From positions 49,615-113,614 of the forward strand of contig JAILRE010000063.1 of NCBI GenBank assembly GCA_024698505.1: 64,000 nt of DNA, in the 5' to 3' direction. This document shows positions 5,560 to 60,831 of the stretch, in pieces. The notes beneath the pieces were generated by a model. That model did not search any database. It had not been told where the DNA came from and worked only from the letters and a program-made list of their open reading frames with translations. The translations under genes and the position numbers were made by a program. The first letter of the stretch is position 1, and each line of letters opens with the position of its first letter. The DNA comes from Clostridiales bacterium (GTDB lineage Bacteria > Bacillota > Clostridia > Christensenellales > CAG-138).

Positions 5560-6942
5560 TTATTTTTCGGAGGGCACGAACTTGGCCTTGATGGTCGCGG
5601 TGTCGGTCTCAACTGCGTATTCCGTCTTCCACTGCTCCTCAAGCTCCGCGCTGAGGTCCTTCAGGCGGTTGGTCTTGACGGCGGAGACCCAGCTCTTCCA
5701 AACCTCGTCGCCGACGGTGTAATCGACGTTTCCGGTCTTGTATTCCTTGTTGACGATAAGATAATGTACGCCGAACTCGGAACTGAACTTGACCACCTTG
5801 GTTCCGTCAAGAAGAGTGAAGTATGTCAGCTCGGGGATATAGGGCTGCGCGGAGGAATCGGGATCGACGTCGATTGTCCATTCGCCTTCGTGCAGGTTCA
5901 TGGCGGCGTAGACGAAACCGTCGTAGTAATCGTCGAGCAGATCCGCATGGATGAGGTATCCGTTCTTTGCGAAGGCGCCTTCCTCCATGCCGGGATCGTC
6001 GCCGTATTCCGAAACGAGCTCCATGAACGCGGCAAAATCGGCGGTGTTCGGGAGCGCCGCCTCGATCTTGGCCTCGTCCTCGGCGCAGCTTTCCTTGTCG
6101 TAGGTCTCGGAGCCGTCATCGTCGGTATCGACAGTATAAGCGAGATAGATGTGATTGACGGAGAAGCAGTCCTTGATGAAGCAGACGGGGGAAGGCCCCT
6201 GCCCGGAGCAATAACCCATGTAGATCTGATTGAAGTCGGACATGGTCATCGCGCTCTCGGCTTCGGCTTCGTCCTCAATGTATTTATTTACGTCCTCGTC
6301 GCTTACCGTTATGCCGTTCTCAAGCTCGTCAAAGTATTTGCCGATTATCCTGTAATAACGCATATTTCCTTTGGCGAGCCTTGTAAAGGATTCGTAATCG
6401 AGGCCGTCGGCTTCAAGATCCTTGCTGAGGAGCTTTATGGCTTCCTCGGTCTTGTTTTCGACTTCGTCTCCGAGCCCTTCGGAATACCTTGCGATGAGCG
6501 AGTCGAGCTGGGCGTTGTACTCCTCTTCAAGCTCGGCTTCCTCCTCCGCGTTGAGCTCCGTGCCCGCGTCGATGGCCGCGTTGACCGCGCGCATGAAGGA
6601 CGAGACCTCTTCGATAACGGAATCGCAGTACTGATCGGCGCTCATAAGGCCGTACATATAGTACTGAAGGTACTTGCCGTTATAGTAGGACTGGCCGAAA
6701 TCGAAGAGCGTGATATCGATATGCTTCGAGGTCATAACGATGGTGTTGCCGTCGAAAACAACGGCCTCCGTCGGGGCAGCCGTGTCTGCGGGCATGGGCT
6801 CTGCGGATGCTTTTTCGGTATCGTCGGGAACGTTCACGCTGCCGTTGAGCCTGCACCCGCCGAATACGGAGATAATGAGCATTATGCAGATAACGGCGGC
6901 TAATGCCGGATGGAAACATTTTATTTTCATTTGATGAAGCAT
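5560..6942 (-). CDS. Putative PrsA/SurA-like foldase lipoprotein with a divergent PpiC-type parvulin region
   Basis: Signal peptide with a lipobox-like FGGC. The C-terminal part resembles a parvulin (VNHIYLAY ... FAAFMELVSEYGDDPGM ... FGVHYLIV). The start could be 6942 or 6930. Confidence 0.45.
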   Translation of the reverse strand: MLHQMKIKCFHPALAAVICIMLIISVFGGCRLNGSVNVPDDTEKASAEPMPADTAAPTEAVVFDGNTIVMTSKHIDITLFDFGQSYYNGKYLQYYMYGLMSADQYCDSVIEEVSSFMRAVNAAIDAGTELNAEEEAELEEEYNAQLDSLIARYSEGLGDEVENKTEEAIKLLSKDLEADGLDYESFTRLAKGNMRYYRIIGKYFDELENGITVSDEDVNKYIEDEAEAESAMTMSDFNQIYMGYCSGQGPSPVCFIKDCFSVNHIYLAYTVDTDDDGSETYDKESCAEDEAKIEAALPNTADFAAFMELVSEYGDDPGMEEGAFAKNGYLIHADLLDDYYDGFVYAAMNLHEGEWTIDVDPDSSAQPYIPELTYFTLLDGTKVVKFSSEFGVHYLIVNKEYKTGNVDYTVGDEVWKSWVSAVKTNRLKDLSAELEEQWKTEYAVETDTATIKAKFVPSEK

Positions 6943-7084: not shown

Positions 7085-8476
7085 ATGGAACCCAAATTTG
7101 TCGATCAGAAAACCATAGACGAATCGTATGCGGCGATAGAGCGTCTTCGCGAAAGGCTGATGGGCGCGCATCCCCGTTACTTTATCGAGACCTACGGCTG
7201 CCAGATGAACGAGCATGATTCCGAAAAGATCGCAGGTATGCTCGAGGCGATAGGCTTCGTCGGTACGGACGAGAAGTCCTCAGCCGATCTTATACTCTTC
7301 AACACCTGCTGTATCAGGGATCACGCCGAGAAGAGGACTTTCGGCAACGTAGGCTTCATCAAGGAGCTGAAGGAAGCCAATCCCGCCCTTATCACCGCCG
7401 TCTGCGGATGCATGATGCAGCAGAAGGAGGTCGCCAAAAGGCTTGCCGCGAGGTTCCCGTTCGTCGATATGATATTCGGAACGAACGAGCTCCACGTTTT
7501 CCCGCAGATGCTTGAAAAGGTCATGAACGGCGGCCGCGTTTTCGAGATAAAGGATATCGAAGGCGAGATAGCGGAGGGCCTTCCCATAAAGCGGAACGAG
7601 GGCTTCTCGACGTTCGTCAACATCATGTACGGCTGCAACAATTTCTGCTCGTACTGCATAGTGCCGTACGTCCGCGGCCGCGAACGCTCGAGAAGAGCCG
7701 AGGACATCATCGGCGAAGTCCGCTGCGTAGTCTCCCAGGGCTTCACTGAGGTCACGCTTTTAGGGCAGAACGTCAACTCGTATAACGATAACGGGACGAG
7801 GTTCCCGGAGCTTTTGAGGCGCGTCAACGAGGTCGAGGGATTAAAGAGGCTGAGGTTCATGACTTCGCATCCGAAGGATCTCTCCCATGAACTTGTGATG
7901 GCGATGGCCGAATGCAGCAAGGTCTGCGAGCATATCCATCTGCCGGTTCAATCCGGAAGCAACCGCATACTGCAGCTCATGAACAGGCGTTATACCAGGG
8001 AAAAGTATCTCGATCTCGTCCGCGATCTGCGTGAGAACGTGAAGGGCATAGAGATAACGACCGATATAATCGTCGGCTTCCCGACGGAGACGGAAGAGGA
8101 TCTTGAGGATACGCTCTCCCTTGTGAGGGAGGTCGGATTCTCCGCGGCGTATTCGTTTGCTTATTCCGTCAGGGAGGGCACGAAGGCCGCCGTTATGGAG
8201 GGGCAGATCCCAGAGAGCGTCAAAAAGGAGCGCCTTGCCAGGCTGAACTCCGTGATAATGGAGTCGGTAAACGGCGCGAACGACAAATACATCGGCCGCG
8301 AGGGCGAGATACTTATCGAGGGGCGCGATATGCGCGGCGAGCCGATGATGTTCGGCAAGCTCGGCAGCCTGAAGATGGTCTACGTCAAGGGCGACGAAAG
8401 CATGATAGGCAATTACTATAAAGTGAGGATAACGGGAACGAGGTTCAACTCCCTCGTCGGAGAATTGATCGACTGA
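7085..8476 (+). CDS. miaB: tRNA-2-methylthio-N6-dimethylallyladenosine synthase (radical SAM methylthiotransferase)
   Basis: YFIETYGCQMNEHDSE N-terminal domain, radical-SAM CSYCIVP motif, C-terminal TRAM. ATG 7085 has GGAGG 5 nt upstream; the ORF-track TTG at 7067 lacks an RBS. Confidence 0.9.
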   Translation: MEPKFVDQKTIDESYAAIERLRERLMGAHPRYFIETYGCQMNEHDSEKIAGMLEAIGFVGTDEKSSADLILFNTCCIRDHAEKRTFGNVGFIKELKEANPALITAVCGCMMQQKEVAKRLAARFPFVDMIFGTNELHVFPQMLEKVMNGGRVFEIKDIEGEIAEGLPIKRNEGFSTFVNIMYGCNNFCSYCIVPYVRGRERSRRAEDIIGEVRCVVSQGFTEVTLLGQNVNSYNDNGTRFPELLRRVNEVEGLKRLRFMTSHPKDLSHELVMAMAECSKVCEHIHLPVQSGSNRILQLMNRRYTREKYLDLVRDLRENVKGIEITTDIIVGFPTETEEDLEDTLSLVREVGFSAAYSFAYSVREGTKAAVMEGQIPESVKKERLARLNSVIMESVNGANDKYIGREGEILIEGRDMRGEPMMFGKLGSLKMVYVKGDESMIGNYYKVRITGTRFNSLVGELID

Positions 8477-8491
8477 GAAACGGGTGGTAAT

Positions 8492-11095
8492 ATGGCTTCT
8501 TTGACGCCGATGATGCAGCAATATCTTGAGCTTAAGGAAAAGTACAGCGATTGTTTGCTTTTCTTCAGGCTCGGCGACTTTTACGAGATGTTTTTCGAGG
8601 ACGCGTTGACCGCTTCGAGGGAGCTTGAGATAGTCCTTACCGGGCGCGATTGCGGTTTGACTGAGCGCGCGCCCATGTGCGGAGTGCCGTATCATTCCGT
8701 AAACAGCTATATCAACAAGCTTATCGACAAGGGCTACAAGGTCGCGATCTGCGAACAGCTCGAGGATCCCGCTCTCGCGAAGGGCCTCGTCGAAAGGGAC
8801 GTCATAAGGGTCATCACTCCCGGCACCGTTATCGAGGAGCAGATGCTTCCCGATAACGCGAACAATTACATAATGGCGATACTCGCCGCCAACGGCGTAT
8901 TCGAGCTCGCCTACTGCGACGTTTCAACGGGGGATTTCTATTCCGCGGAACTCATTGGCGACAGGGCTCAGCAGGAGCTGATGGACGAGCTTACAAGGAT
9001 CGAGCCGCGCGAGATAATCGCGAACGAGTTCCTATTTACGAGGGAATTCATCACAAGGTGGATCACATCCAAGTTCTATATAGAAAAGAAGGAGCAGAAG
9101 TATTTCGATATCGAACGCGGTCAGCGCGGCCTCATGAAGCATTTCAAGGTCAATTCGCTTTCCGGCTACGGCATAAGCGACAACTCCATGGCCGCTGCAT
9201 GCGCAGGCGCGCTGCTGAGATATCTTGAGGATACGCAGAAGAACGCGCTTACCCATATCACGAAGATAATGCTTCAAAAGCCCCGCGAGTATATGGGCAT
9301 AGACGCCTCGACAAGGCGCAATCTGGAGCTGACGACCCCTCTCAGGTACGACGGCAGCAAGAAGAATACGCTCCTCGGCGTGCTCGACAGGACGAAAACT
9401 TCCATGGGCGCGAGGATGATGAGGAATTGGGTGGATCAGCCCCTTCAGTCCATAGAGGCGATCAACGAAAGGCTCGACGCGGTTGAAGCCCTTTATTCCA
9501 AGGCGAAGGAGCGCGGGCTTTTGAAGGATGCGCTCGACGGCGTTTACGACATCGAAAGGCTCTGCAGCCGTATCGCATACGGCACCGTCAACGCGAGGGA
9601 CTGCGACGCCCTCAGAAAGACGCTTGCCAAAATACCTTCCGTACGCGAAGCCGTTGAAAGGATACAGGGCAGCGATAGGCTCGGCAAGATAGCTTCCGGG
9701 ATCGATCCTATGGAGGATATAAGGGAGCTTCTTGAAAGGGCAATAGTCGACGAGCCTCCGCTTTCCGTCAAGGACGGCGGTATAATAAAGGAGGGCTACG
9801 ATAAAGAGGTCGACGAGCTGAAGAGCCTTTCCCACGGCGGCCGCAGCGCCCTTGCAAGCATAGAGAACCGCGAACGCGAGCGCACCGGTATAAAGAATCT
9901 CAAGGTCGGCTATAACCGCGTATTCGGCTACTATATTGAGGTCACCAATTCATACAGGGAGCTTGTGCCCCTTGATTATCAGCGCAAGCAGACGCTTACG
10001 AACGCCGAAAGATTCGTTACCCCCGAGCTCAAACAGCTTGAGGAGAAGATACTCGGCGCGGAGGAGAAGTGCATTTCGCTCGAGTATTCACTCTTCTGCG
10101 AGATAAGGGAGCTTCTTCTTGAGTGCATAGACAGGCTCAAGGCGGATTCCGTCATGATAGCCGAGCTCGATTGCTTTGCCGCGCTCGCGCAGGATGCGGT
10201 CGATTACGATTACTGCCGGCCGCGTATGTCGAAGAGCGGAAAAATCAAGATCGTGGACGGACGCCATCCGATAGTCGAGCGAAGCGTAAAGGATCAGTTC
10301 ATCCCCAACTCCACCGAGCTTGACGACAAGGACGATCGTATCGTTATACTTACCGGCCCCAATATGGCGGGCAAGAGCACCTATATGAGGCAGGTTGCGC
10401 TCATCACGCTTATGGCGCATATGGGTTCGTTCGTTCCCGCAAAGCAGGCGAATATCTGCCTGGTGGACAAGATATTCACAAGGGTGGGCGCTTCCGACAG
10501 CCTGTCAACCGGCCAGTCCACGTTTATGGTAGAGATGAGCGAGATGGCGAATATCCTCAACAACGCCACCTCGAAGAGCCTCCTCGTTATCGACGAGATA
10601 GGCAGGGGGACGAGCACGTTCGACGGTCTTAGCATAGCGTGGGCAGTAGTTGAGCATATCTCCGACAGGCGCAAGTGCGGCGCGAAGACGCTCTTTGCCA
10701 CGCATTATCACGAGCTTACAGAGCTTGAGGGCAAGCTTGACGGCGTTAAGAATTACAGGATCACCGTTAAGGAGATAGGCGACGATATCATTTTCCTGAG
10801 AAGGATTATGAGGGGCGGCGCCGATAAGAGCTTCGGCATCCAGGTCGCCCGTCTTGCGGGGCTTCCTTACAGCCTTATCGAGCGTTCCAAGGAGATACTG
10901 AAGCAGCTTGAGGATTCCGATATCAACAATGCCGCCGCAAGGGTAAAGGACGTCGTCTCCGAGCAGGTCAATCTTTTGGGCTCCACGGATGAGAAGGATA
11001 TCATCAGCGAGCTTCGCAGTATAGACGTCAACGGGCTCACGCCAATGGAAGCGTTGAGCAAGCTTTATGAACTTAGCATGAGGGCAAAGATATGA
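8492..11095 (+). CDS. mutS: DNA mismatch repair protein MutS
   Basis: TPMMQQYLELK N-terminus, Walker A GPNMAGKST, 867 aa. Confidence 0.95.
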   Translation: MASLTPMMQQYLELKEKYSDCLLFFRLGDFYEMFFEDALTASRELEIVLTGRDCGLTERAPMCGVPYHSVNSYINKLIDKGYKVAICEQLEDPALAKGLVERDVIRVITPGTVIEEQMLPDNANNYIMAILAANGVFELAYCDVSTGDFYSAELIGDRAQQELMDELTRIEPREIIANEFLFTREFITRWITSKFYIEKKEQKYFDIERGQRGLMKHFKVNSLSGYGISDNSMAAACAGALLRYLEDTQKNALTHITKIMLQKPREYMGIDASTRRNLELTTPLRYDGSKKNTLLGVLDRTKTSMGARMMRNWVDQPLQSIEAINERLDAVEALYSKAKERGLLKDALDGVYDIERLCSRIAYGTVNARDCDALRKTLAKIPSVREAVERIQGSDRLGKIASGIDPMEDIRELLERAIVDEPPLSVKDGGIIKEGYDKEVDELKSLSHGGRSALASIENRERERTGIKNLKVGYNRVFGYYIEVTNSYRELVPLDYQRKQTLTNAERFVTPELKQLEEKILGAEEKCISLEYSLFCEIRELLLECIDRLKADSVMIAELDCFAALAQDAVDYDYCRPRMSKSGKIKIVDGRHPIVERSVKDQFIPNSTELDDKDDRIVILTGPNMAGKSTYMRQVALITLMAHMGSFVPAKQANICLVDKIFTRVGASDSLSTGQSTFMVEMSEMANILNNATSKSLLVIDEIGRGTSTFDGLSIAWAVVEHISDRRKCGAKTLFATHYHELTELEGKLDGVKNYRITVKEIGDDIIFLRRIMRGGADKSFGIQVARLAGLPYSLIERSKEILKQLEDSDINNAAARVKDVVSEQVNLLGSTDEKDIISELRSIDVNGLTPMEALSKLYELSMRAKI

Positions 11096-51494: not shown

Positions 51495-52988
51495 TCATAC
51501 AAGCGAGGGTATCAGCCTCATAACGTAGCGCACTATTATCAGCGCGTCGCTCGAATCGAGCTTGTCGTCGAGCGTTACGTTGCCGGCGCAGATCTGTCTT
51601 TCCGTGAGGTCCTGCAGATGCATCGTATACCTTACGATAAGGAGCGCGTCGGCACTCGCTACCGTACCGTTAAGATCCGTATCGCCGAGCAGAGTGTATT
51701 GAGCATGGACTTCCATATCCTCGGTCACGCAGTCAAGCTCCGCGTCCCAGCCGTAGAATACGAAAGTTCCGTCGGCGTTGTTTTGCACTCTTTCGACCTC
51801 CGGCGGCGTGACGGGCTGACCGTCCGGAACGGAAACCCGAGAGATCAGCGAGCCGTCGAATCCGTAGAAGGCAACCGTATGTACGGCAGTACTGCTTCCC
51901 ACGATCTTCAATGCGGGAAGATCGCCGTTATCGGGATCGCCGGCGGTATAGTAATTACCGCCCTCGAATCCTCCGACAAGGTATTGCAGTTCGGAGCCGG
52001 CGGTCGAGCAATCCTCATCCTTGCAGTGCAGCACGGTCGTCAACGGGTAGCTGACAGTGCTGAAATAGACGCTTTCGATATCGTTGGTTATTTTCAGCCT
52101 TCCGCAGAAGACGATGGCTTCTCCGTAATAGGTGCTGACAGGCATTGAAAGGATATTGACCCTGCCGCCCTCAATTGTAAAGGAAAGATATGAATAGATG
52201 CTCCTTGAACCCGCGTTTATAGTAACGTCGCTGTTTCCGGAGATCCTGATCTTGCCGAATGTCGTCCATATGCCTCTTGCGAAAGACCAAAGATCGTTCG
52301 CGCTGTAGTTCTGGATATTGACGACGGAATCCTCTATGAGGATCTCGTCTGCGGTCTCTTCGGATACGCCGCCTATCGGGGTATAACCCTCGGCCTTGAT
52401 GCCGCAGCTGCCGAAATAGGTGTTCACGACCGCGTTTATGATCTTGATCTTCTGATGCCCGTAGATGCAGGGGCGAAGGGTCGCGGCGTTGTTGTTCGTC
52501 CGCTCGAGCCCGTAGCAGTTCACGGTGATATCCTTTATTACGAGCTCGTCGATATGAACGTTCTCGCCGTAAGAGGACTGGTTTATGCAGCGGCCGTTGT
52601 ACTGATTGGCGTAGAGATTCAGAGTGCCGTTTCCCTCAATGATGAGATACCCGTCCGGACCGCCCTGAAGGACGTCGTGCTCGCCGTTCATGTAAACGTT
52701 GTCGATATAGCAGTCGCCGTTTATGACGACGCGGGTGTTTGTCGGAACTATGATGGGAGCGCTGTGCGCAGAAGCGCTGCCGTATCTTGTAAGCGTGAGC
52801 TGCGGATTGCCGTTATAGGCGGTTGGGTCGAAATACCATCCGTCCTTTGTGGAATAGCTTACTTCGGTCACTTCGCTGAGATCGAGCAGAGTTGTCCTCG
52901 CTCCCCTTGTTTCATTAATACCGGCGAACGATGGAACGGACGCAAACAGCAATACCGCGGCGATAAAGACGGCAATGATTCTTTTCAT
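51495..52988 (-). CDS. Secreted paralog: the same unassigned N-terminal domain, one Flg_new repeat and a type I dockerin
   Basis: Signal peptide (..PSFA/G). Colinear motif blocks shared with 49701-51374 (AHSAP, NGDCYIDN, GTLNLYA.QY.G.C, GYTPIGG, TFG.IRI.G). Dockerin segments GDTDLNGTVASAD and GNVTLDDKLDSSD. Confidence 0.7.
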   Translation of the reverse strand: MKRIIAVFIAAVLLFASVPSFAGINETRGARTTLLDLSEVTEVSYSTKDGWYFDPTAYNGNPQLTLTRYGSASAHSAPIIVPTNTRVVINGDCYIDNVYMNGEHDVLQGGPDGYLIIEGNGTLNLYANQYNGRCINQSSYGENVHIDELVIKDITVNCYGLERTNNNAATLRPCIYGHQKIKIINAVVNTYFGSCGIKAEGYTPIGGVSEETADEILIEDSVVNIQNYSANDLWSFARGIWTTFGKIRISGNSDVTINAGSRSIYSYLSFTIEGGRVNILSMPVSTYYGEAIVFCGRLKITNDIESVYFSTVSYPLTTVLHCKDEDCSTAGSELQYLVGGFEGGNYYTAGDPDNGDLPALKIVGSSTAVHTVAFYGFDGSLISRVSVPDGQPVTPPEVERVQNNADGTFVFYGWDAELDCVTEDMEVHAQYTLLGDTDLNGTVASADALLIVRYTMHLQDLTERQICAGNVTLDDKLDSSDALIIVRYVMRLIPSLV

Positions 52989-53107: not shown

Positions 53108-54382
53108 TTACGCGGCGTCGCCGACTGTGGAAACAAAGAGCACCGCGCCGGTCTCGACCTGATAGATTACCATGGCGTACGGCCTGTCGCAGAGCATGAA
53201 TACGTCGCCGTTGAGAAGCGAGATGCCCTTGGAGCCGACTATCGCGGTGGCGGCGGCGGCCTTGGTGCCCTTTTCGTTGACGATCAGCTTCGCGCCCTGC
53301 ATAATCGTGGTGATGCTGAAATCGTCCCCATTGAGCATTTCGGAGAAATCGCCTTTCAGGCCCTCGGATATCCCGAGGTCGCTTGCCATAGCGAGAACGT
53401 CGATCTTGCTGGTGATCTCGACGCGGGGCATCTGGAGGGAGACGCTCGTGCTGCTGCACTCGTTCTGCCTGCCGATAAGCTTAACTGCGGCGTCAGCGGG
53501 AGCAACGCCCTCTTTGGGGAGGATGACCGCCATGCAGTATTCGCCGCCCTCGTAGGGGATGATCACCATTTCGCCCTCGTCGAACTTGCCGTAATCGAAT
53601 TTATCGGTGACGCTTATCATATTGACGTCCTTGGTACCGCTGACGCCATGGAAGGGAGTAGTCGCGCTCTGGGGCTTGAAGGGGATCGCCCAATTGAGAT
53701 CGAGCGTGAGCGCGTTGAGTATGACGATAACGGTCTCGCGGTCAAGATGATCCAGAAGCTCGCTGATGAGGCCGTCCGTGTTCTGATAGACCCAGTTGTT
53801 GATCTCTTTCAGAGCCTTGTTCGGATTCGAGAAATCCAGCGCGCCGACGGATGCGCGGTAGTAATCGGCAGCGATATTGGCGAATTTCTCACTGACCCTG
53901 TATCCGCAGTTTGCAACGAAAGCCGAATTGATATTGACGCCCTTTGCGGAAAGGAAGGTGTCGATAAGCCTTGCGGTGCTTGCGTTCACGTCGGCCCTCG
54001 TAAGGCCCGGGCAGATGGAATCGAGCAGCTTCGCGGCGGTCGCTTCGTCCGCGCCGTTGGCGAGGATCTGGAGCGCGATCTGCAAGGAAAGGGGGGAGTA
54101 GACGCATGTCTTGTTATTAGCCATGGCCTTCGCCATAGTAACGGCAAACATGTTGTTTACTTCCGAATAGCGCGCGTTGTACTCCGAAGAGGAGAGGAGT
54201 CCCTCGTTCAGGGTGTGAAGCGATATAGCGCAGGTCTTGCCCCTTTCGTTGAGATAGGAAACGGTATCGCCTTCCGCGGGAGCGGCTGTGGGATCGGTGT
54301 TGTTGTTGACGGGCGTCGTGCATCCGAAGCAGACGGCCGCAAAGAGAACGGCCAATGAAACGGAAATAATACGCTTTAACAT
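53108..54382 (-). CDS. Serpin-family serine protease inhibitor, secreted or possibly lipid-anchored
   Basis: The serpin core is colinear (SPLSLQIALQILANGA...). Inhibitory-type hinge and reactive-centre loop NEKGTKAAAATAIVGSKGIS, then the CDRPY strand. Signal peptide with Cys (VCFGC). Confidence 0.85.
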   Translation of the reverse strand: MLKRIISVSLAVLFAAVCFGCTTPVNNNTDPTAAPAEGDTVSYLNERGKTCAISLHTLNEGLLSSSEYNARYSEVNNMFAVTMAKAMANNKTCVYSPLSLQIALQILANGADEATAAKLLDSICPGLTRADVNASTARLIDTFLSAKGVNINSAFVANCGYRVSEKFANIAADYYRASVGALDFSNPNKALKEINNWVYQNTDGLISELLDHLDRETVIVILNALTLDLNWAIPFKPQSATTPFHGVSGTKDVNMISVTDKFDYGKFDEGEMVIIPYEGGEYCMAVILPKEGVAPADAAVKLIGRQNECSSTSVSLQMPRVEITSKIDVLAMASDLGISEGLKGDFSEMLNGDDFSITTIMQGAKLIVNEKGTKAAAATAIVGSKGISLLNGDVFMLCDRPYAMVIYQVETGAVLFVSTVGDAA

Positions 54383-54454
54383 GTACGTATCCTCCTTTGT
54401 TGATCAAAATGGCATTACCATTTTACATATATAACGAACGAATTGCAATAAGGG

Positions 54455-54483
54455 TTCCCAAAATTCAAAAAATAAGTTATAAT
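54455..54483 (+). promoter_or_regulatory. Promoter abutting the uvrC start (leaderless candidate)
   Basis: TTCCCA, a 17-nt spacer, then TATAAT. The -10 ends at 54483, ATGs lie at 54484 and 54490, and there is no Shine-Dalgarno. Confidence 0.35.
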
Positions 54484-54489
54484 ATGCGT

Positions 54490-57129
54490 ATGAACGACGT
54501 GATAAGGGATAAACTCAAGCTTTTGCCGGACAGCCCGGGGGTGTACCGCATGTATAACTCTTTGGGAGAGATCATTTACGTCGGCAAAGCGGTCAACCTG
54601 AAGAACAGAGTTAGGCAGTATTTCCAGAATACCGCGAAGGCTCCGAAGGTCGCGGCGATGGTTTCCAACATCGCCGATTTCGAGTTTACCATAACCGAGT
54701 CCGAAGCGGAAGCGCTGAATCTCGAATGCAATATGATAAAGCAAAACCGTCCGAGATACAACGTGCTTCTTAAGGACGACAAAGCTTTTCCCTACGTAAG
54801 GATAGATTATTCAAAGGATTTCCCGCGGCCTGAGATCGTAAGGCGCATAAAGAAGGACGGAGCGAAGTATTACGGCCCGTTCCTTTCCGCCCTGACGTTA
54901 AGGGACGCCATGACCGCAGTCCGCGATTTCTTCCCGGTAAGGCATTGCAAAAAGGATATCCAAAAGGCGATCGCAAGGCGCGAGAGGCCCTGCCTCATGT
55001 ACCACCTCGGCAAGTGCTGCGCTCCGTGCTCCGGCAAGGTCACGAGGGAGGAGTACCATGGTTATCTCGATGAGATAGCTCTCCTTCTTCAGGGCCACTG
55101 CAAGCCCGTTACCGAGCGGCTTACCGTCGCTATGAACGAAGCCGCCGAAAGGATGGAGTTTGAACGCGCCGCGATGTACCGCGACAGGATCCGCGCTATG
55201 GAGAGCCTTGCCGCCAAGCAGCGCGCCGCCACCACTACCGTCAACAGCTTCGACGTTTTCGCCGTTGCAAGGGACGACATGAACACCGTCGTATACGCTA
55301 CCATGATGCGCGACGGAAAGGTTGTAATGACGGACGGTTATTTCGTTACGGCGCTGGACGAAACCGACGAGGAGATCATGGCCTCGTTCCTCATGCAGTT
55401 CTACATGGACAGCGGCTTTGTGCCTAATGAGATCGTCTGCCGCACCCTGCCGAACGACGCGGAGAGCATAGCTTCGTGCATAAGGGAAAACTGCGGCCAT
55501 GCCGTGAAGATAATCAAGCCCCAGAGGGGCGAGAAGAAGCAGCTTGCCGAAATGGCTTTCACCAACGGGAATGAAGCCCTTAAACGAAAGAAGGAGCTCA
55601 CCCTGAGGGAGTGGGAGCGCGGCGAAGGCGCGCTCGTGGAGCTTTCGAGGATAGTCGGAATGGACGAAGTCCCGCACAGGATGGAATGCTACGATAACTC
55701 GCACTTCCAGGGCAGGGACACCGTAGGCTCCATGGTAGTGTTCATAGACGGCAAGCCCAATAAGGATCTTTACCGCAGATTCAGAACGAAGACGCAGACC
55801 GAAGGCGACGATTACGAGGCCATGCGCGAGCACCTTACAAGGCGCTTTCAAAGAGCAGCCGACGGAGACGAGAAGTTCGGCGATCTTCCCGATCTTCTTA
55901 TAGTTGACGGTGGAAGGGGCCAGCTCAACGTCGCTCTGGAGGTGCTTGAAGCATTCGGGCTTTCGTACATACCCGCAATAGGTCTTGCTGAACGCAACGA
56001 GGAGCTGATACTGCCCGATCGCGAGGACTCGATACTCCTTCCGAAGACGAGCAGCACGCTGCATCTTTTGCAGAGGATAAGGGACGAGGCGCACCGTTTC
56101 GCAATCTCCTATCACAGGTGCATGCGCTCCAAATCGACCCTGTACTCCGTACTGCAGGATATAGAGGGCGTCGGCGAAAAGCGAAGGCGCGCGCTCTTCG
56201 ATAAGTTCCTTACCATGGATGCGATCAAAAAGGCGTCCGTCGAAGAGCTTGCATCGGCGGACGGAATGAACATGCCTGCCGCAAAAAAGGTTTACGAGTA
56301 TTTTCACGGCGGAAAGGAAAACGGATTGAAGTATAAACTGCTTGCACTCGATATCGACGACACCATCCTCCCGAGGAACGGCGTCATTTCCGAAAGGACC
56401 AAGCGCGCCGTCAAGATGGCGGAGGACGCGGGCGTCTACGTGACGCTCGCCACGGGCAGAGGGTTCTACGGTTCGTCGATGGTTTGGAAGGAGCTGAAGC
56501 TCGACCGTCTTATTATCAACTACGGAGGCGCCGTAATAAACGACGCCAAGACGGGCAAGCCCTTCATGGTGACGGAGCTTGAGAGCTCTACTGTCACGGA
56601 GATACTCGAGCTTGCGACGGCTTTGGATCTTCACGTGCATCTCTATCAGGGCGACGAGATCGTTTACGAGCACGAGCACGAATACGGAAGGCGGTATTCC
56701 GAGCATTTGGGTCTCCCCGCGAGGATAGAGCCGAACATCCGCAACATGGTCTGGAAGAACGTACCGAAGGTGCTGATAATAACCGAGCCCGAGAGGGTTC
56801 CCGACCTGCTTCCGTACTTTGCCGAAAAGCTCAGGGGCAAGGCGGCCGTGTCGGGTTCTTCGCCGGGATTCATCGAGTTCAACAAGATCGGCGCAAACAA
56901 GGGCACGGCGCTCAAGATCCTCGCCGATCATTTGGGGATAAAACAGTCGGAGACCGCTGCCGTCGGCGACAATACGCTCGACGTCGATATGATCGAATGG
57001 GCGGGGCTCGGCTGCTGCGTGGAGGACGGAAATCCCCTCGTCAAGGAGAAAGCCGATCTTATAATACCGAAATGCGCCGAGGACGGCGTCGCGTATCTTA
57101 TAGAAAACTATCTGCTGAAGGAGCAATGA
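54490..57129 (+). CDS. uvrC: Excinuclease ABC subunit C fused in frame to a Cof-type HAD-IIB hydrolase
   Basis: GIY-YIG (PGVYRMYN..IYVGKAVNLKNRVRQY), the UvrBC domain, the RNase H-like endonuclease and (HhH)2 run to about codon 612. The HAD part follows (LLALDIDDTIL, TLATGR, GDNTLDVDM). ATG 54484 is an alternative start. Confidence 0.85.
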   Translation: MNDVIRDKLKLLPDSPGVYRMYNSLGEIIYVGKAVNLKNRVRQYFQNTAKAPKVAAMVSNIADFEFTITESEAEALNLECNMIKQNRPRYNVLLKDDKAFPYVRIDYSKDFPRPEIVRRIKKDGAKYYGPFLSALTLRDAMTAVRDFFPVRHCKKDIQKAIARRERPCLMYHLGKCCAPCSGKVTREEYHGYLDEIALLLQGHCKPVTERLTVAMNEAAERMEFERAAMYRDRIRAMESLAAKQRAATTTVNSFDVFAVARDDMNTVVYATMMRDGKVVMTDGYFVTALDETDEEIMASFLMQFYMDSGFVPNEIVCRTLPNDAESIASCIRENCGHAVKIIKPQRGEKKQLAEMAFTNGNEALKRKKELTLREWERGEGALVELSRIVGMDEVPHRMECYDNSHFQGRDTVGSMVVFIDGKPNKDLYRRFRTKTQTEGDDYEAMREHLTRRFQRAADGDEKFGDLPDLLIVDGGRGQLNVALEVLEAFGLSYIPAIGLAERNEELILPDREDSILLPKTSSTLHLLQRIRDEAHRFAISYHRCMRSKSTLYSVLQDIEGVGEKRRRALFDKFLTMDAIKKASVEELASADGMNMPAAKKVYEYFHGGKENGLKYKLLALDIDDTILPRNGVISERTKRAVKMAEDAGVYVTLATGRGFYGSSMVWKELKLDRLIINYGGAVINDAKTGKPFMVTELESSTVTEILELATALDLHVHLYQGDEIVYEHEHEYGRRYSEHLGLPARIEPNIRNMVWKNVPKVLIITEPERVPDLLPYFAEKLRGKAAVSGSSPGFIEFNKIGANKGTALKILADHLGIKQSETAAVGDNTLDVDMIEWAGLGCCVEDGNPLVKEKADLIIPKCAEDGVAYLIENYLLKEQ

Positions 57130-58037
57130 AAATGATCAAGCTTGGCTTTGATATCGGAGGAACGACCGTAAAGGCCGGCGCGGTGGACGAAGAGTACCGC
57201 ATTATAAGAAAGCTTGCGAGGCCAACGCCGAAATGCGACGGGGCTGCGCTCTGCCTGCTTATCGCAGATATGGCGCGTGAGCTTGCGAACGGCGATGAGA
57301 TATCCGCTTTGGGCATCACCGTGCCGGGCTCCGTCGATAAGGAAGGACGGATCGTCGCCGCAGTCAATCTCGGCCTCTTCGATTTCCCGATAAGGGAAAA
57401 GATGGAGAAGCTTACGAGCGTTAATGAGGTAATAGTCCGCAACGATGCGGACGCCGCCGGAGAGGCGGAGCTTGCGCTCGGCGCTTTGAAGGGCGTGAAT
57501 ACCGGGCTTATACTGACGATCGGCACCGGCGTCGGAGGATGCCTCGTGCTTGGAGGCAGGCTGTTCCACGGAGGTCTTGACCGCGGCACCGAATTGGGCC
57601 ACGCTATGCTTGACAGGGGCGGAATGCTCTGCGGCTGCGGACACAGAGGATGCATCGAAACGCTTTGCTCCGCCACCGCGATCAGAAGGCTTGCTGAAGC
57701 CGCCTGCCGTGAGGAGGACGGCATGATACGCGAGCTTGCGGAGAAAGGCCGCGAGGTCGACGCGAAGCTGCTTATCGATTGCGCGATCGCGGGCGACGGC
57801 GAAGCGCTAAGACTCTTCGACGAATACACCGACGCGCTTGCCGACGCGATCGCATCGTTCGTCAATATCCTCGATCCCGAGGTCATCGTATTGGGCGGCG
57901 GAGTATCCGGAGCAGGCGATTTCATACTCGATCCGTTAAGGAAAAAGGTCCCCGAAAAATGCTTCTTCGGCTCCTGCGGCAAGATCCTCGCCGCGGAAGC
58001 GGGCAACGACGCGGGCGTCATCGGCTCGCTTATCTGA
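57126..58037 (+). CDS. ROK-family sugar kinase (glucokinase-like)
   Basis: LGFDIGGTTVKAG ATP motif and the ROK Zn motif GHAMLDRGGMLCGCGHRGCIE. ATGA overlap with uvrC-HAD. Confidence 0.8.
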   Translation: MKMIKLGFDIGGTTVKAGAVDEEYRIIRKLARPTPKCDGAALCLLIADMARELANGDEISALGITVPGSVDKEGRIVAAVNLGLFDFPIREKMEKLTSVNEVIVRNDADAAGEAELALGALKGVNTGLILTIGTGVGGCLVLGGRLFHGGLDRGTELGHAMLDRGGMLCGCGHRGCIETLCSATAIRRLAEAACREEDGMIRELAEKGREVDAKLLIDCAIAGDGEALRLFDEYTDALADAIASFVNILDPEVIVLGGGVSGAGDFILDPLRKKVPEKCFFGSCGKILAAEAGNDAGVIGSLI

Positions 58038-58062
58038 AACAATAATACGGAGGAATGATATT

Positions 58063-58740
58063 ATGTCTATCATGTGCGCGGTCTATGTCCCCGAAGGCAT
58101 AGTTATTGCGGCGGACAGCCGAATGACGGGGAATCTCATGTTCAAGACGAGCGACGGAAAGACTCAGCAGCAGGGGATGTTCTCCATATCCGACAACGCT
58201 CAGAAGGTATTCCTTCTAAGCAAGGTCAAGGTCGGCATTTCTTCCTGCGGCATGGCCCTCATCGAGAACAAGACCATATCCGATTATCTCAGGATATTCG
58301 AGATCAGGGAGGTCAAAAAGTCCGATTCCGTCACCGACGTTGCGAAGAAACTGCAGGCATACGCATACAAGTATTTCCCGAACGTTCACTTCTTCGTCTG
58401 CGGTTACGAGGAGGAAGAGCCCTTCGTTTATGACGTCAGCAAGGAGCTGAAGCGCATAAACATGGATAACGGCAACATCAGGTACGCCTCATCCTGGAAC
58501 GGAGAGCAGCAGGCCATAACTAAGCTTCTCAATTCTCAGCCGCCGACTCCGATCAACCACAATATCATGCCGCTCAAGGACGCTATCGATTTCGCGGAAT
58601 TCCTTATCGACGTCACGATCAAGCTTCAGCGCTTCGAGATGAAGCCGAAGACCTGCGGCGGCGATATCGACGTGCTCGTCCTTACCAAAGACGATGCGTT
58701 CTGGCATCAGCATAAGATACTCAAACCCGCTCGCAAGTAA
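58063..58740 (+). CDS. Proteasome beta-subunit-like Ntn-hydrolase fold protein with Ser at the nucleophile position
   Basis: MSIMCAVYVPEGIVIAADSRMT aligns by eye with the mature beta-subunit N-terminus (T-T-x-x-G-x-x-x-x-D-G-V-V-L-A-A-D-x-R). AQKVFLL matches the Lys33 strand and CGGDIDVLVLTKDD matches SGG.I.V..I.kdG. GGAGG RBS. Confidence 0.5.
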   Translation: MSIMCAVYVPEGIVIAADSRMTGNLMFKTSDGKTQQQGMFSISDNAQKVFLLSKVKVGISSCGMALIENKTISDYLRIFEIREVKKSDSVTDVAKKLQAYAYKYFPNVHFFVCGYEEEEPFVYDVSKELKRINMDNGNIRYASSWNGEQQAITKLLNSQPPTPINHNIMPLKDAIDFAEFLIDVTIKLQRFEMKPKTCGGDIDVLVLTKDDAFWHQHKILKPARK

Positions 58741-58741
58741 T

Positions 58742-59227
58742 ATGGCTAAGAAACAAAAAACAACCGGCGGAGCCTCCGCCTATGATACAGCGCTGAGATA
58801 CCTTACTCCAAAGGCGAGGACCGTCCGCGAGGTCGAATTGAAGCTCGACGAGGGATGCTTTTCGGAGGGCGAGATCATGCAGACCGTCGAAAGGCTGCAG
58901 GACGCCGGTTTATTGAACGATGCGAAATACGCGGAGGAATACGTTGCTTCAAGGCTCAGGACAAAGCCCGTCAGCAAGTTCAGGCTTCGCGAACAGCTAA
59001 AGGGCCATTTCGTTCCCGAAGATGTGATCGAGGCGGCGCTTGCGGAAGTCCCGGATGAAACGGAATTCGACAACGCCGTTGCTGTTGCAAGGAAGTTCCT
59101 GCGTCAGTTCGAGGGCCTTGATGACGAGGAAGAGAAAAGGAAGAGAATCTATTCAAGGCTTTATTCCCGCGGATATTCCCATGAAACGATAGAAGCCGCG
59201 ATAGAAGAAGCGAAAGCCGAACTGTAA
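58742..59227 (+). CDS. recX: Recombination regulator RecX
   Basis: Three-helix repeat pattern (ALRYLTPKARTVREVELKL, DAKYAEEYVASR, SRLYSRGYSHETIEAAI); 161 aa. Confidence 0.8.
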   Translation: MAKKQKTTGGASAYDTALRYLTPKARTVREVELKLDEGCFSEGEIMQTVERLQDAGLLNDAKYAEEYVASRLRTKPVSKFRLREQLKGHFVPEDVIEAALAEVPDETEFDNAVAVARKFLRQFEGLDDEEEKRKRIYSRLYSRGYSHETIEAAIEEAKAEL

Positions 59228-59247: not shown

Positions 59248-60831
59248 ATGGACAACGACAGATTTCAGGTATTTCCCTATACCGTTTATACTTATGAATC
59301 CGTTGATTCGACCAACGCGGTCGCAAGGCGCGCGATAGCCATGATCGGCGACTCGGCGGATCTGACCGTACACGTTGCGGGCGAACAGACGGCCGGCAAG
59401 GGCAGGAACGGAAGGACTTGGCTGAACACTGACAGGGCAGTTATGATGAGCATCGTCCACGAAACGAAGCTCAATATGGACAAGATGCCCATACTCAATC
59501 TTGCCGCGGCAATGGCTGTCAGGAACGCGCTCGTCAAGCTGACCGACAATAAGATCGATCTTACGATCAAATGGCCGAACGACGTGCTGACCTCGGAAAA
59601 GCTCGAAAAGATATGCGGGATACTATCCGAGGCGGTAAGGCTTGACGGCAAGAAATATGCGATAATCGGCATCGGCGTTAATCTTGACGCCGCAAGGATG
59701 CCCGGCAATCTGCTTCAGCCGGCTACAAGCGTATATCTCGAATGCGGTAAGCATGTTTATGTCCTCGAGGCTGTAAAGGCGATACTAAAGGAATTCGATT
59801 TTCAGTACAAGCTGCTCATGAGCGATCCCGACACCTTCCTTCGTTCCTTCGCCGCGGGCTGCGTCACGCTCGGAAGGCACGTCGCAGTTATAAACGGAGA
59901 CGAGATCAGATACGGTATCGGCGAAAAGCTCGCTCCGAACGGTCAGCTGATAGTCAACTACGAGGATGGGCAGAAGGAGCTCGTCTACGCGGCGGACGTA
60001 TCGGTAAGGAACCAGACGACTATCGACGAAAACCTTATAAAGAAGCTGATGCCCAAAAGGCCGAGGAAGTCCAACAAGGGAGATTTCGGCAGAGCGGCTA
60101 TAATAGCAGGGACCCGTGACATGCCGGGAGCGGGCCTCATGTGCGTCAGAGCATGCCTTCGCGCAGGGGCGGGTCTGACTAAGGCATTGATCCCCGAACA
60201 GCTCAGAGAGGCTTTCAGCCGCATTCCGGAGGCTATGCTCGTTACCGATGACGAAAAGGCCGACGAGCTTATCTCATGGGCTTCCGCAATAGGCATAGGC
60301 TGCGGTCTCGGGGTAAACGAAAGGACGCGGGCTCTCGTTGAGAAAGCGCTTCGCTCCGGCAAGAACTGCGTTATCGACGCCGACGCGCTGAACACTATGG
60401 CAAAGCACAGGGAGCTTCTCGACCTGCTGCACGCGGGGGTAGTTATCACGCCCCATCCCGCGGAAATGGCAAGGCTCATGGAGTGCGATACCGAAAAGGT
60501 CGTCAAGGAGTTTTCCGCCACGGCTATCGAATTTGCGGCAAGGTACGGCTGCTGCGTTCTGCTGAAATCGGCTTCGAGCATCATCGTTTCTCCGAACGGC
60601 ACGGTCAGGTATAACGACAGCGGCAACAGTGGGCTTGCCAAGGGAGGGAGCGGAGACGTGCTTGCGGGCATTGTTACCGCGATGCTCGCCCAAGGGGCGA
60701 AACCCTTCGACGCGGCGTCCATCGGCTCGTTCCTTCTGGGATCGTCAGCGGAAAAGGCGCTCTCGTTCCTGCATGACAGGTTCATACTTGCGGGAGACAT
60801 AACCGACATCATTTCATCCGAGATCAAATAA
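59248..60831 (+). CDS. Biotin--protein ligase (group I BirA, no HTH) fused to an ADP/ATP-dependent NAD(P)H-hydrate dehydratase (YjeF_C/NnrD)
   Basis: The N-terminal half has DSTN, GKGRNGRTW and IKWPNDVL. The C-terminal half has KGDFGRAAIIAGTRDMPGAG, ITPHPAEMARL and AKGGSGDVLAG. One uninterrupted frame. Confidence 0.8.
   Translation: MDNDRFQVFPYTVYTYESVDSTNAVARRAIAMIGDSADLTVHVAGEQTAGKGRNGRTWLNTDRAVMMSIVHETKLNMDKMPILNLAAAMAVRNALVKLTDNKIDLTIKWPNDVLTSEKLEKICGILSEAVRLDGKKYAIIGIGVNLDAARMPGNLLQPATSVYLECGKHVYVLEAVKAILKEFDFQYKLLMSDPDTFLRSFAAGCVTLGRHVAVINGDEIRYGIGEKLAPNGQLIVNYEDGQKELVYAADVSVRNQTTIDENLIKKLMPKRPRKSNKGDFGRAAIIAGTRDMPGAGLMCVRACLRAGAGLTKALIPEQLREAFSRIPEAMLVTDDEKADELISWASAIGIGCGLGVNERTRALVEKALRSGKNCVIDADALNTMAKHRELLDLLHAGVVITPHPAEMARLMECDTEKVVKEFSATAIEFAARYGCCVLLKSASSIIVSPNGTVRYNDSGNSGLAKGGSGDVLAGIVTAMLAQGAKPFDAASIGSFLLGSSAEKALSFLHDRFILAGDITDIISSEIK

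Follow-up and report, generated by a model that had tools for sequence, protein, structure and literature searches.

The relatives of the proteasome were searched for systematically by Fuchs, Alva & Lupas (2021; Bioinformatics 37:4694, PMC8665760), who reported 22 new clusters of homologs. Their catalogue contains five Firmicute-specific clusters, FC1-FC5, which were assigned to 'group II', with HslV in group I. In their analysis all proteasome homologs keep Thr1/Ser1, Asp17, Lys33 and Gly47, and propeptides occur in most β and HslV subunits and in no other proteasome homolog. No AAA+ partner or informative gene context was found for the FC1-FC5 clusters, and Table 1 of the same paper gives no phage occurrence for them. 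Proteasome homologs other than HslV, Anbu, BPH and connectase are known from bioinformatic listings, and the Firmicute clusters are without known structure, activity, partner or role; a literature search found no characterization of these homologs after 2021. Here we describe a gene that very probably belongs to this part of the catalogue. It lies at 58063-58740 on the + strand of a 64,000-nucleotide stretch of DNA from a Clostridiales bacterium (assembly GCA_024698505.1, contig JAILRE010000063.1, positions 49,615 to 113,614), which is called the window below and to which all coordinates refer unless a locus handle is given. The open reading frame (ORF) codes for 225 amino acids plus a stop codon. 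Its product is predicted to have the fold of a proteasome β subunit, with a serine in place of the threonine nucleophile; the gene is a core gene in one clade of gut and rumen Clostridia, and its relatives are found on prophages and conjugative elements.

Fold and family

The product was modelled using AlphaFold2 on a 27-sequence alignment, which gave a mean predicted local distance difference test score (pLDDT) of 83.7 and a predicted template modelling score (pTM) of 0.81. When the model was compared with the PDB using Foldseek, the 50 best matches listed were all 20S β subunits, with a best E-value of 7.8e-9 and template modelling (TM) scores of 0.53-0.69. The model contains helices at residues 72-83 and 90-103, which correspond to H1/H2, and the H3/H4 pair is also present. 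Profile comparisons and conservation counts were made with an alignment of 114 diverse family sequences, designated A2. Against the PDB, the A2 profile found 20S β subunits at E 2e-6 and full-length Thermoplasma β at E 8e-4, while hhalign aligned it with T. acidophilum β over 175 columns (probability 95.9%, E 6e-9). The same comparison with E. coli HslV gave a probability of 0.7% over only 25 columns, that is, no alignment; the T. acidophilum reference had been checked against 3C91_H/1PMA_B, and the HslV reference had likewise been checked against the PDB. No HslV, Anbu or BPH chain occurs in the best 60 of the 105 PDB matches to the A2 profile, and connectase (6ZVZ) gives a marginal match (E 0.03) that covers 31 N-terminal residues only. 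The single sequence matches PDB β5 chains at E 2e-3. In a Pfam scan of the 114 members of A2, the Proteasome family PF00227 (MEROPS T1, Ntn clan) was the sole recurring family, found in 25 of them at E≤0.01 with a best E-value of 5.4e-7. The ORF product has no NCBIfam match even at E≤10, and its only match in PHROGs is a marginal one at the C-terminus, to phrog_5990 (function unknown).

We conclude that the product has a proteasome-β/N-terminal nucleophile (Ntn) fold, with the four α-β-β-α layers and the topology of a β subunit. An earlier note on this DNA, made from the sequence alone, had proposed this fold, and it is recovered by the AlphaFold2 model with Foldseek, by the A2 profile against the PDB and by hhalign to T. 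acidophilum β. The comparison with Bacillus CodW/HslV made in the same note stands as an analogy only, the profile failing to align to HslV.

A word-indexed search found 278 homologs at E≤1e-3. In an exhaustive profile search of 1.84 billion cluster representatives (50%-identity clusters), 1922 reached E≤1e-3 and 743 reached E≤1e-10. Every close or mid-range homolog belongs to the Clostridia or the Bacilli; Acidobacteriota and Alphaproteobacteria have more distant relatives, which bear a long H3/H4 insertion, reminiscent of the PMI clusters of Fuchs et al. (PMC8665760). No paralog of the product was found within the window by tblastn.

The family includes proteins from Bacillus and the B. cereus group, such as the FC reference accessions also suggest, some of them deposited as early as 2009 (EEM21324.1), and one member, WP_438906378.1, is named 'Ntn hydrolase family protein' by PGAP. 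An exhaustive survey of nr could hardly miss a B. cereus-group family deposited since 2009, and it is therefore very likely that the family is already in the catalogue. Compared by description rather than by reference sequence, it corresponds with high probability to one or more of the FC clusters. None of the family accessions (WP_075690417.1, WP_098158328.1, WP_054550311.1, WP_411253779.1 and WP_438906378.1) is the same as an FC1-FC5 reference accession (WP_075525441.1, WP_000217171.1, WP_098409529.1, WP_076223917.1 and WP_106036939.1; PMC8665760). The suggestion that this might be an undescribed lineage of bacterial proteasome homologs is consequently doubtful, FC1-FC5 having been catalogued in 2021 with this family very probably among them.

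Active site and inserted hairpin

The residues that define the proteasome active site can be traced in the protein with an offset of one at the N-terminus. Ser2 (codon TCT, 58066-58068) corresponds to Thr1 in the HMMER, PDB profile and hhalign alignments, and is the predicted N-terminal nucleophile after removal of Met1. Asp18-Ser19-Arg20 (58114-58122) correspond to Asp/Glu17-x-Arg19, with Ser19 at β-subunit position 18, and each of the three is kept in 113 of the 114 sequences. Lys48 (58204-58206) is placed on the catalytic Lys33 by both HMMER and hhalign and is equally well conserved (113/114). Cys62-Gly63 (58246-58251) lie in the region of the Gly47 oxyanion-hole loop, with an ambiguous exact equivalence, and Gly63 is kept in 110/114. 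In the hhalign comparison with T. acidophilum β, FFVCGY...PFVYDV pairs with LLVGG...PHVFSID, and CGGDIDVLVLTKDD pairs with SGGMIDVAVITRKD.

Other positions around the active site are substituted, as the earlier note had said of Ser169. In the hhalign alignment, Trp145-Asn146-Gly147 (58495-58503) replace Gly128-Ser129-Gly130, and Pro195...Cys198-Gly199-Gly200 (58645-58662) replace Asp166...Ser169-Gly170-Gly171. The glycines are well kept across A2 (Gly147 in 114/114, Gly199 in 113/114 and Gly200 in 109/114), whereas position 146 varies between D, G, S, N and A, position 195 is variable, and position 198 is Val in 74 sequences and Cys in 38.

The N-terminus of the product is fixed by the DNA. 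The Shine-Dalgarno sequence GGAGG (58049-58053) lies 9 nt 5' of the ATG, and there is no in-frame start codon between the preceding stop and this ATG; an N-terminal extension or propeptide is therefore impossible, and the product must begin Met-Ser. The same arrangement is seen across the family. Among 149 unfiltered representatives, 99 begin with MS and 28 with MT (127 in total), and position 1 of the profile nearly always matches residue 1 of the protein. In the close clade 108 of 120 members start with MS, and several of the exceptions (MC and MA starts) resemble mis-called starts. Judged from these sequences, the family lacks a propeptide, and is thus predicted to rely on removal of methionine to expose its Ser or Thr nucleophile. 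Serine and threonine are both good residues after Met for methionine aminopeptidase.

A further departure from the 20S β subunit is an insertion of about 14 residues ahead of Lys48 relative to T. acidophilum β (hhalign). In the model, residues 21-42 (58123-58188) form an inserted β-hairpin with strands at 21-28 and 34-42. It is the most variable segment of the protein: the column entropy in A2 is 2.42 bits, compared to about 0.65 for the catalytic strands, and its length ranges from 9 to 45 residues across the family. Its position is the S3/S4 insertion site, adjacent to the active site; in connectase the element that determines specificity is inserted there too (PMC8665760). We infer that the hairpin gates or selects substrates. 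The insertion, like the equivalences of Asp18, Arg20 and Lys48 and the serine directly following Met1, had been read correctly from the sequence in the earlier note.

Chromosomal and mobile relatives

The many homologs and the ratio of nonsynonymous to synonymous substitution rates (dN/dS) identify the 225-residue ORF as a real gene under strong purifying selection, with dN/dS at 0.03-0.09 against close orthologs wherever dS is unsaturated. The GC content at third codon positions (GC3) and the codon usage are those of the adjoining genes. The product is 100% identical to MCR5809708.1, a hypothetical protein of a Clostridiales metagenome-assembled genome.

A survey of taxonomy and gene neighbours of the kind proposed in the earlier note found about 40 related loci from uncultured gut and rumen Clostridia, in which the protein is 52-89% identical to that of the window and the gene in most cases follows uvrC, a HAD phosphatase gene and a ROK gene. 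The titles of several records name Christensenellaceae, Christensenella or Christensenellales. Upstream there is usually a divergent serpin gene; the 3' neighbour is usually a Polysacc_synt flippase-like gene, and recX and birA-nnr are found downstream only in the closest relatives. Protein identity follows UvrC identity approximately 1:1 (89/84, 77/75 and 61/61%; Spearman 0.72), and across the loci compared the protein is better conserved than ROK, RecX and the serpin. Within this clade the gene is inherited vertically, as a core gene.

A different picture is given by relatives with 41-58% identity, which are carried on mobile elements. Four unrelated prophage types from the B. cereus group and Lysinibacillus carry a copy between tail or tail-fibre genes and the holin-endolysin genes (L067, L069, L070/71 and L072). 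A gut prophage (L076) has its copy just after holin-endolysin, at the prophage end, and in three phages (L065, L074 and L078) it lies directly upstream of the terminase genes. On three human-gut conjugative elements (L001-L003) the copy follows an AAA_14/DUF4143 ATPase of the PDC-S01 type, with ArdA, PcfJ and PcfK nearby. For further copies (L006, L047 and L048) the neighbour is a gene resembling DUF3644/PDC-S19, a Fic gene with a match to SoFic/PDC-S04, or MobA together with a serine recombinase. A very distant copy on a Bacillus plasmid lies among genes for a cytosine methyltransferase, ArdC and an LPD1 protein, and was the only one found on plasmids by tblastn. The scan of viral contigs was seeded with a narrower alignment (A1), A2 being too divergent as a seed. 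When 50,697 records of isolated, sequenced phages were searched by tblastn with the window protein and with two copies from prophages, no match was found; in BFVD there is a structurally close protein from a gut siphovirus (TM 0.74, E 1.6e-12). Since the neighbours change from one locus to the next, no fixed partner emerges, and the mobile copies show the pattern of an autonomous accessory gene. None of the related copies on phages, integrative and conjugative elements (ICEs) or the plasmid has repair genes as neighbours.

In a neighbour-joining tree the chromosomal clade, which is made up of the syntenic loci and a small number of relocated copies, is derived within a grade of phage and mobile-element lineages, and phage or ICE sequences enter it in no more than 8 of 100 bootstraps. 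The tree suggests that the chromosomal gene is a domesticated mobile gene, the direction of transfer being read from a crude tree rooted on very distant homologs, which tells against leaning on it heavily. We consider it probable that the gene of this lineage stems from a family otherwise carried as cargo by phages and conjugative elements.

Two possible partners were considered and rejected. In L001-L003 (4684-6666) the ATPase and the proteasome homolog form a same-strand pair with a 36-nt gap, which is kept while the flanks differ (Thoeris ThsB/SIR2-STALD in L002, an nSTAND-Metallophos gene in L001 and L003). As a family-wide unfoldase this ATPase does not qualify, as it adjoins the L001-L003 copies only and matches PDC-S01, which we take to be a single-gene candidate system. 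The other is an ORF of 54-57 residues directly 5' of phage-borne homologs (L045 7778-7945, L076 4779-4946, L078 1128-1301 and L067 5787-5951). Only those of L045 and L076 are similar by BLAST, the others sharing a loose IDY..K[YF][LM] pattern; since the copies are not demonstrably homologous and the ORF is absent from the window, it was discarded as a general partner, though a role as a small partner, an inhibitor or a substrate is conceivable.

Some further observations were made on the mobile loci. The phage L078, with its homolog upstream of terminase, also encodes a Tad2-like protein (6139-6633; Pfam PF11195), Tad2 being an anti-Thoeris protein. In an IMG/VR prophage (L066, 6001-6099) the copy is interrupted after 32 codons and is thus probably a pseudogene. 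Neobacillus and Bacillus chromosomal copies (L054-L056, about 8001-8660) lie between DUF6241 and DinB-family genes and in the tree nest in B. cereus-group prophage lineages; they may be prophage remnants. Directly 3' of two mobile copies are genes with HEPN-like Rx4H motifs (LRNNETH and RNNYAH; L047 8706-9605 and L050 5988-7418), the former matching DUF3644 and the PADLOC candidate PDC-S19 and the latter without a family match.

In the window, the gene sits in the tight same-strand string that the earlier note had described, and the ORF is exactly as stated there. Upstream, a single ORF of 910 residues (54397-57129, +; Pfam) joins UvrC to a HAD phosphatase of the Cof type (Hydrolase_3). Its start codon is uncertain: the UvrC-like N-terminus begins near 54484, which makes the listed TTG start doubtful. 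The two are separate genes in more distant relatives (618 and 278 residues in L004), and, to judge from the gene strings, the closest relatives may have the fused form. The start of the ROK-family kinase or regulator (57126-58037, +; Pfam ROK, E 1.6e-54) overlaps the uvrC-HAD stop, and this gene ends 25 nt 5' of the ORF. Downstream, recX (58742-59227, +; Pfam RecX_HTH1-3) starts 1 nt past the stop codon of the ORF and is followed by an apparently unusual BirA-Nnr fusion of 527 residues (59248-60831, +), composed of BPL_LplA_LipB, BPL_C and an NAD(P)H-hydrate dehydratase Carb_kinase domain, and further on by amidohydrolase, MTHFS, RsmD and CoaD genes (Pfam). No AAA+/HslU, α-subunit, ATP-grasp or transglutaminase domain was found by Pfam in the flanking genes between 51.5 and 63.7 kb, in agreement with the earlier note. 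There are no terminator-like sites on the + strand from 54.4 to 62.5 kb, which makes co-transcription with the neighbours plausible, and the ORF is probably co-transcribed with uvrC-HAD, ROK and recX. No LexA/Cheo box was found in or near the gene string, and matches to the LexA box elsewhere are at chance level. The ORF product has no match in PADLOC.

Two genes on the opposite strand lie on the far side of uvrC. The serpin (53108-54382, -; Pfam Serpin, E 2e-64) is divergent to uvrC and has by eye a hydrophobic, signal-peptide-like N-terminus; about 25 related genomes have it in the same place, and it evolves much faster (28-54% identity). The next gene (51495-52988, -) encodes a protein of 497 residues with a signal-peptide-like N-terminus, no Pfam match at E≤1e-4, and C-terminal repeats that look dockerin-like by eye (DTDLNG...DALLIVRY / DSSDALIIVRY).

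Predicted activity and comparison with known systems

The best-supported reading is that the protein is a cytosolic Ser-Ntn hydrolase with a predicted Ser2/Lys48/Asp18 triad. Methionine aminopeptidase would remove Met1, serine being a favoured residue after Met. The hydroxyl of the exposed Ser2 would then act as the nucleophile and its free amine would aid proton shuttling; Lys48 (Lys33) would activate the hydroxyl, with Asp18 (Asp17) positioning and tuning Lys48, and the backbone NH of the Cys62-Gly63 loop in the Gly47 region would stabilize the oxyanion. An acyl-enzyme intermediate formed on a peptide or amide bond would be resolved by water. With the hairpin at residues 21-42 gating or selecting substrates, such an enzyme would be a selective peptidase and not a bulk degradation machine. 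A nucleophile exposed by mere removal of Met, as predicted here, needs no assembly-dependent autoprocessing. That the protein is an ATPase-independent, substrate-selective Ser-Ntn peptidase is the prediction that we favour, with moderate confidence.

Several points weigh against this reading. The single-sequence match to PF00227 is weak (E 1.1e-3, 19.1 bits), below the gathering threshold of 22.4 bits. The confidence of the model in the hairpin is only moderate (pLDDT about 64). The equivalent of Gly47 is ambiguous, since HMMER pairs Cys62 with Gly47 and Gly63 with Gly48 whereas hhalign opens a 3-residue gap. Ser129, Asp166 and Ser169, the second-shell residues that hold the amine of the nucleophile in place in 20S β subunits, are replaced by Asn146, Pro195 and Cys198, so that the chemistry may differ or the activity may be low. 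Fuchs et al. do not count these three residues as defining for the wider family (PMC8665760). Finally, isolated 20S β subunits are inactive unless assembled, and most characterized members of the family do assemble (PMC8665760).

The last point leads to the alternative of a classical self-compartmentalizing ring protease, a double hexamer or heptamer like BPH or an uncapped 20S/HslV, which would act on its own or together with a housekeeping chaperone in the bulk degradation of unfolded proteins or peptides. Ring-forming 20S β subunits are the closest relatives with a solved structure, H1/H2 and H3/H4, which are ring-contact helices in known homologs, are present in the model, and conservation at the level of a core gene suits a housekeeping role. 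We prefer the selective peptidase because a hypervariable element stands at the active site, the relatives have the lifestyle of accessory genes and the second shell is lost; the insertions in these homologs may moreover be incompatible with rings (PMC8665760), and the ring protease is in our view unlikely. The hairpin could also belong to a sequence-specific transpeptidase, protein ligase or processing enzyme acting on one or few defined targets. Its S3/S4 site is that of the connectase specificity element, the profile has its marginal N-terminal match to 6ZVZ, and an ATPase partner is lacking here too. But H1/H2 are present in the model and absent in connectase, the insertion is a β-hairpin rather than a two-helix lid, the similarity stops at 31 residues, and no conserved candidate substrate gene adjoins the ORF in the window, which leaves a connectase-like ligase improbable. 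It is harder still to see the protein as a catalytically dead scaffold, like proteasome α or inactive β subunits, and we give this almost no credence: loss of the Ser129, Asp166 and Ser169 equivalents would fit, yet the equivalents of the nucleophile, Asp17, Arg19 and Lys33 are near-invariant across very divergent members and the N-terminus is always extension-free, and it is exactly such features that inactive homologs typically lose.

The gene contexts bear on two further alternatives. Prophage accessory slots (from the tail genes to holin/endolysin, behind the lysis cassette or ahead of terminase) are taken by relatives with 42-58% identity, and others lie in ICEs and mobile islands beside PDC-S01, PDC-S19/DUF3644, SoFic/PDC-S04, Thoeris, nSTAND and the anti-restriction genes ArdA/ArdC, which would suit an effector of phage defence, counter-defence or superinfection exclusion. 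That it acts so in the window chromosome too is improbable, as the gene occupies a fixed housekeeping string in the window and in most of the roughly 40 related loci, with native codon usage, UvrC-like conservation, no mobile-element genes nearby and no PADLOC match, and the neighbours of the mobile copies vary from one locus to another. The earlier note had seen in the string a hint of a link to DNA-damage physiology. A function performed jointly with UvrC and RecX could account for the terminator-free, same-strand arrangement with uvrC-HAD, ROK and recX, and for the order uvrC-HAD-ROK-gene in most of the related loci. Adjacency to recX is lost beyond the closest relatives, where the flippase-like gene takes its place; there is no LexA/Cheo box, the string mixes in the unrelated birA-nnr, MTHFS, rsmD and coaD, and homologs elsewhere have no repair neighbours. 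The link thus finds no support, and we regard a role in DNA damage as highly improbable. A broader view of the family, which we hold to be less likely than not, is that it is primarily mobile-element cargo, a stand-alone Ser-Ntn protease whose hypervariable hairpin would target particular proteins of the opposing party (in defence, counter-defence or exclusion), and that one lineage of gut and rumen Clostridia domesticated it to a core gene under as much constraint as UvrC.

If this last view is true, it would put a proteasome-family enzyme in phage-host conflict, together with a documented domestication, and would give the proteasome fold such a role in bacteria. A selective peptidase or a ligase, should the protein prove to be one, could attract biotechnological interest, as connectase has done. 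The locus offers a tractable entry point: a small single gene with an invariant triad and a variable hairpin that probably sets specificity. As far as we know, the syntenic core-gene clade of abundant gut and rumen Clostridia and the prophage/ICE sister lineages near candidate defence genes go beyond the 2021 catalogue. Both contexts provide testable leads to function, which that catalogue reported as missing.

It remains to compare the window protein with the named systems. Like FC1-FC5, its family is centred on Firmicutes, lacks a propeptide and an AAA+ partner, keeps the Thr1/Ser1-Asp17-Lys33 core, carries insertions and is uncharacterized; unlike FC1-FC5 as described, it has prophage/ICE relatives and one syntenic core-gene clade. 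With the 20S β subunits (T. acidophilum PsmB, 1PMA/3C91; eukaryotic β1/β5), which are its best matches in both sequence and structure, it shares the fold and strand order, the equivalents of the nucleophile, Asp/Glu17, Arg19 and Lys33, and the C-terminal GG-x-I-D-V strand, at a sequence identity of about 15-20%. It differs from them in having Ser rather than Thr as its nucleophile, in lacking a propeptide and autoprocessing, in having no α-subunit gene adjoining the ORF in the window, and in the 14-residue hairpin before Lys33 and a 6-residue insertion before the Ser169 equivalent. HslV and Bacillus CodW are likewise bacterial Ntn hydrolases of the proteasome family, and CodW reportedly uses an N-terminal Ser, a result ascribed to Kang et al. 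in 2001; the window gene, however, has no hslU/codX neighbour, and its product has 225 residues with insertions as compared to the compact HslV of about 175. Anbu and BPH are also bacterial proteasome homologs without a known unfoldase, although the ATP-grasp and transglutaminase neighbours of Anbu are not present at the window locus. Connectase (MJ0548, 6ZVZ) is similar in being a stand-alone homolog without a partner ATPase and with an insertion at the S3/S4 site by the active site. It is an archaeal ligase of methanogens, without H1/H2 and with a two-helix lid, whereas the window protein keeps H1/H2 and carries a β-hairpin.

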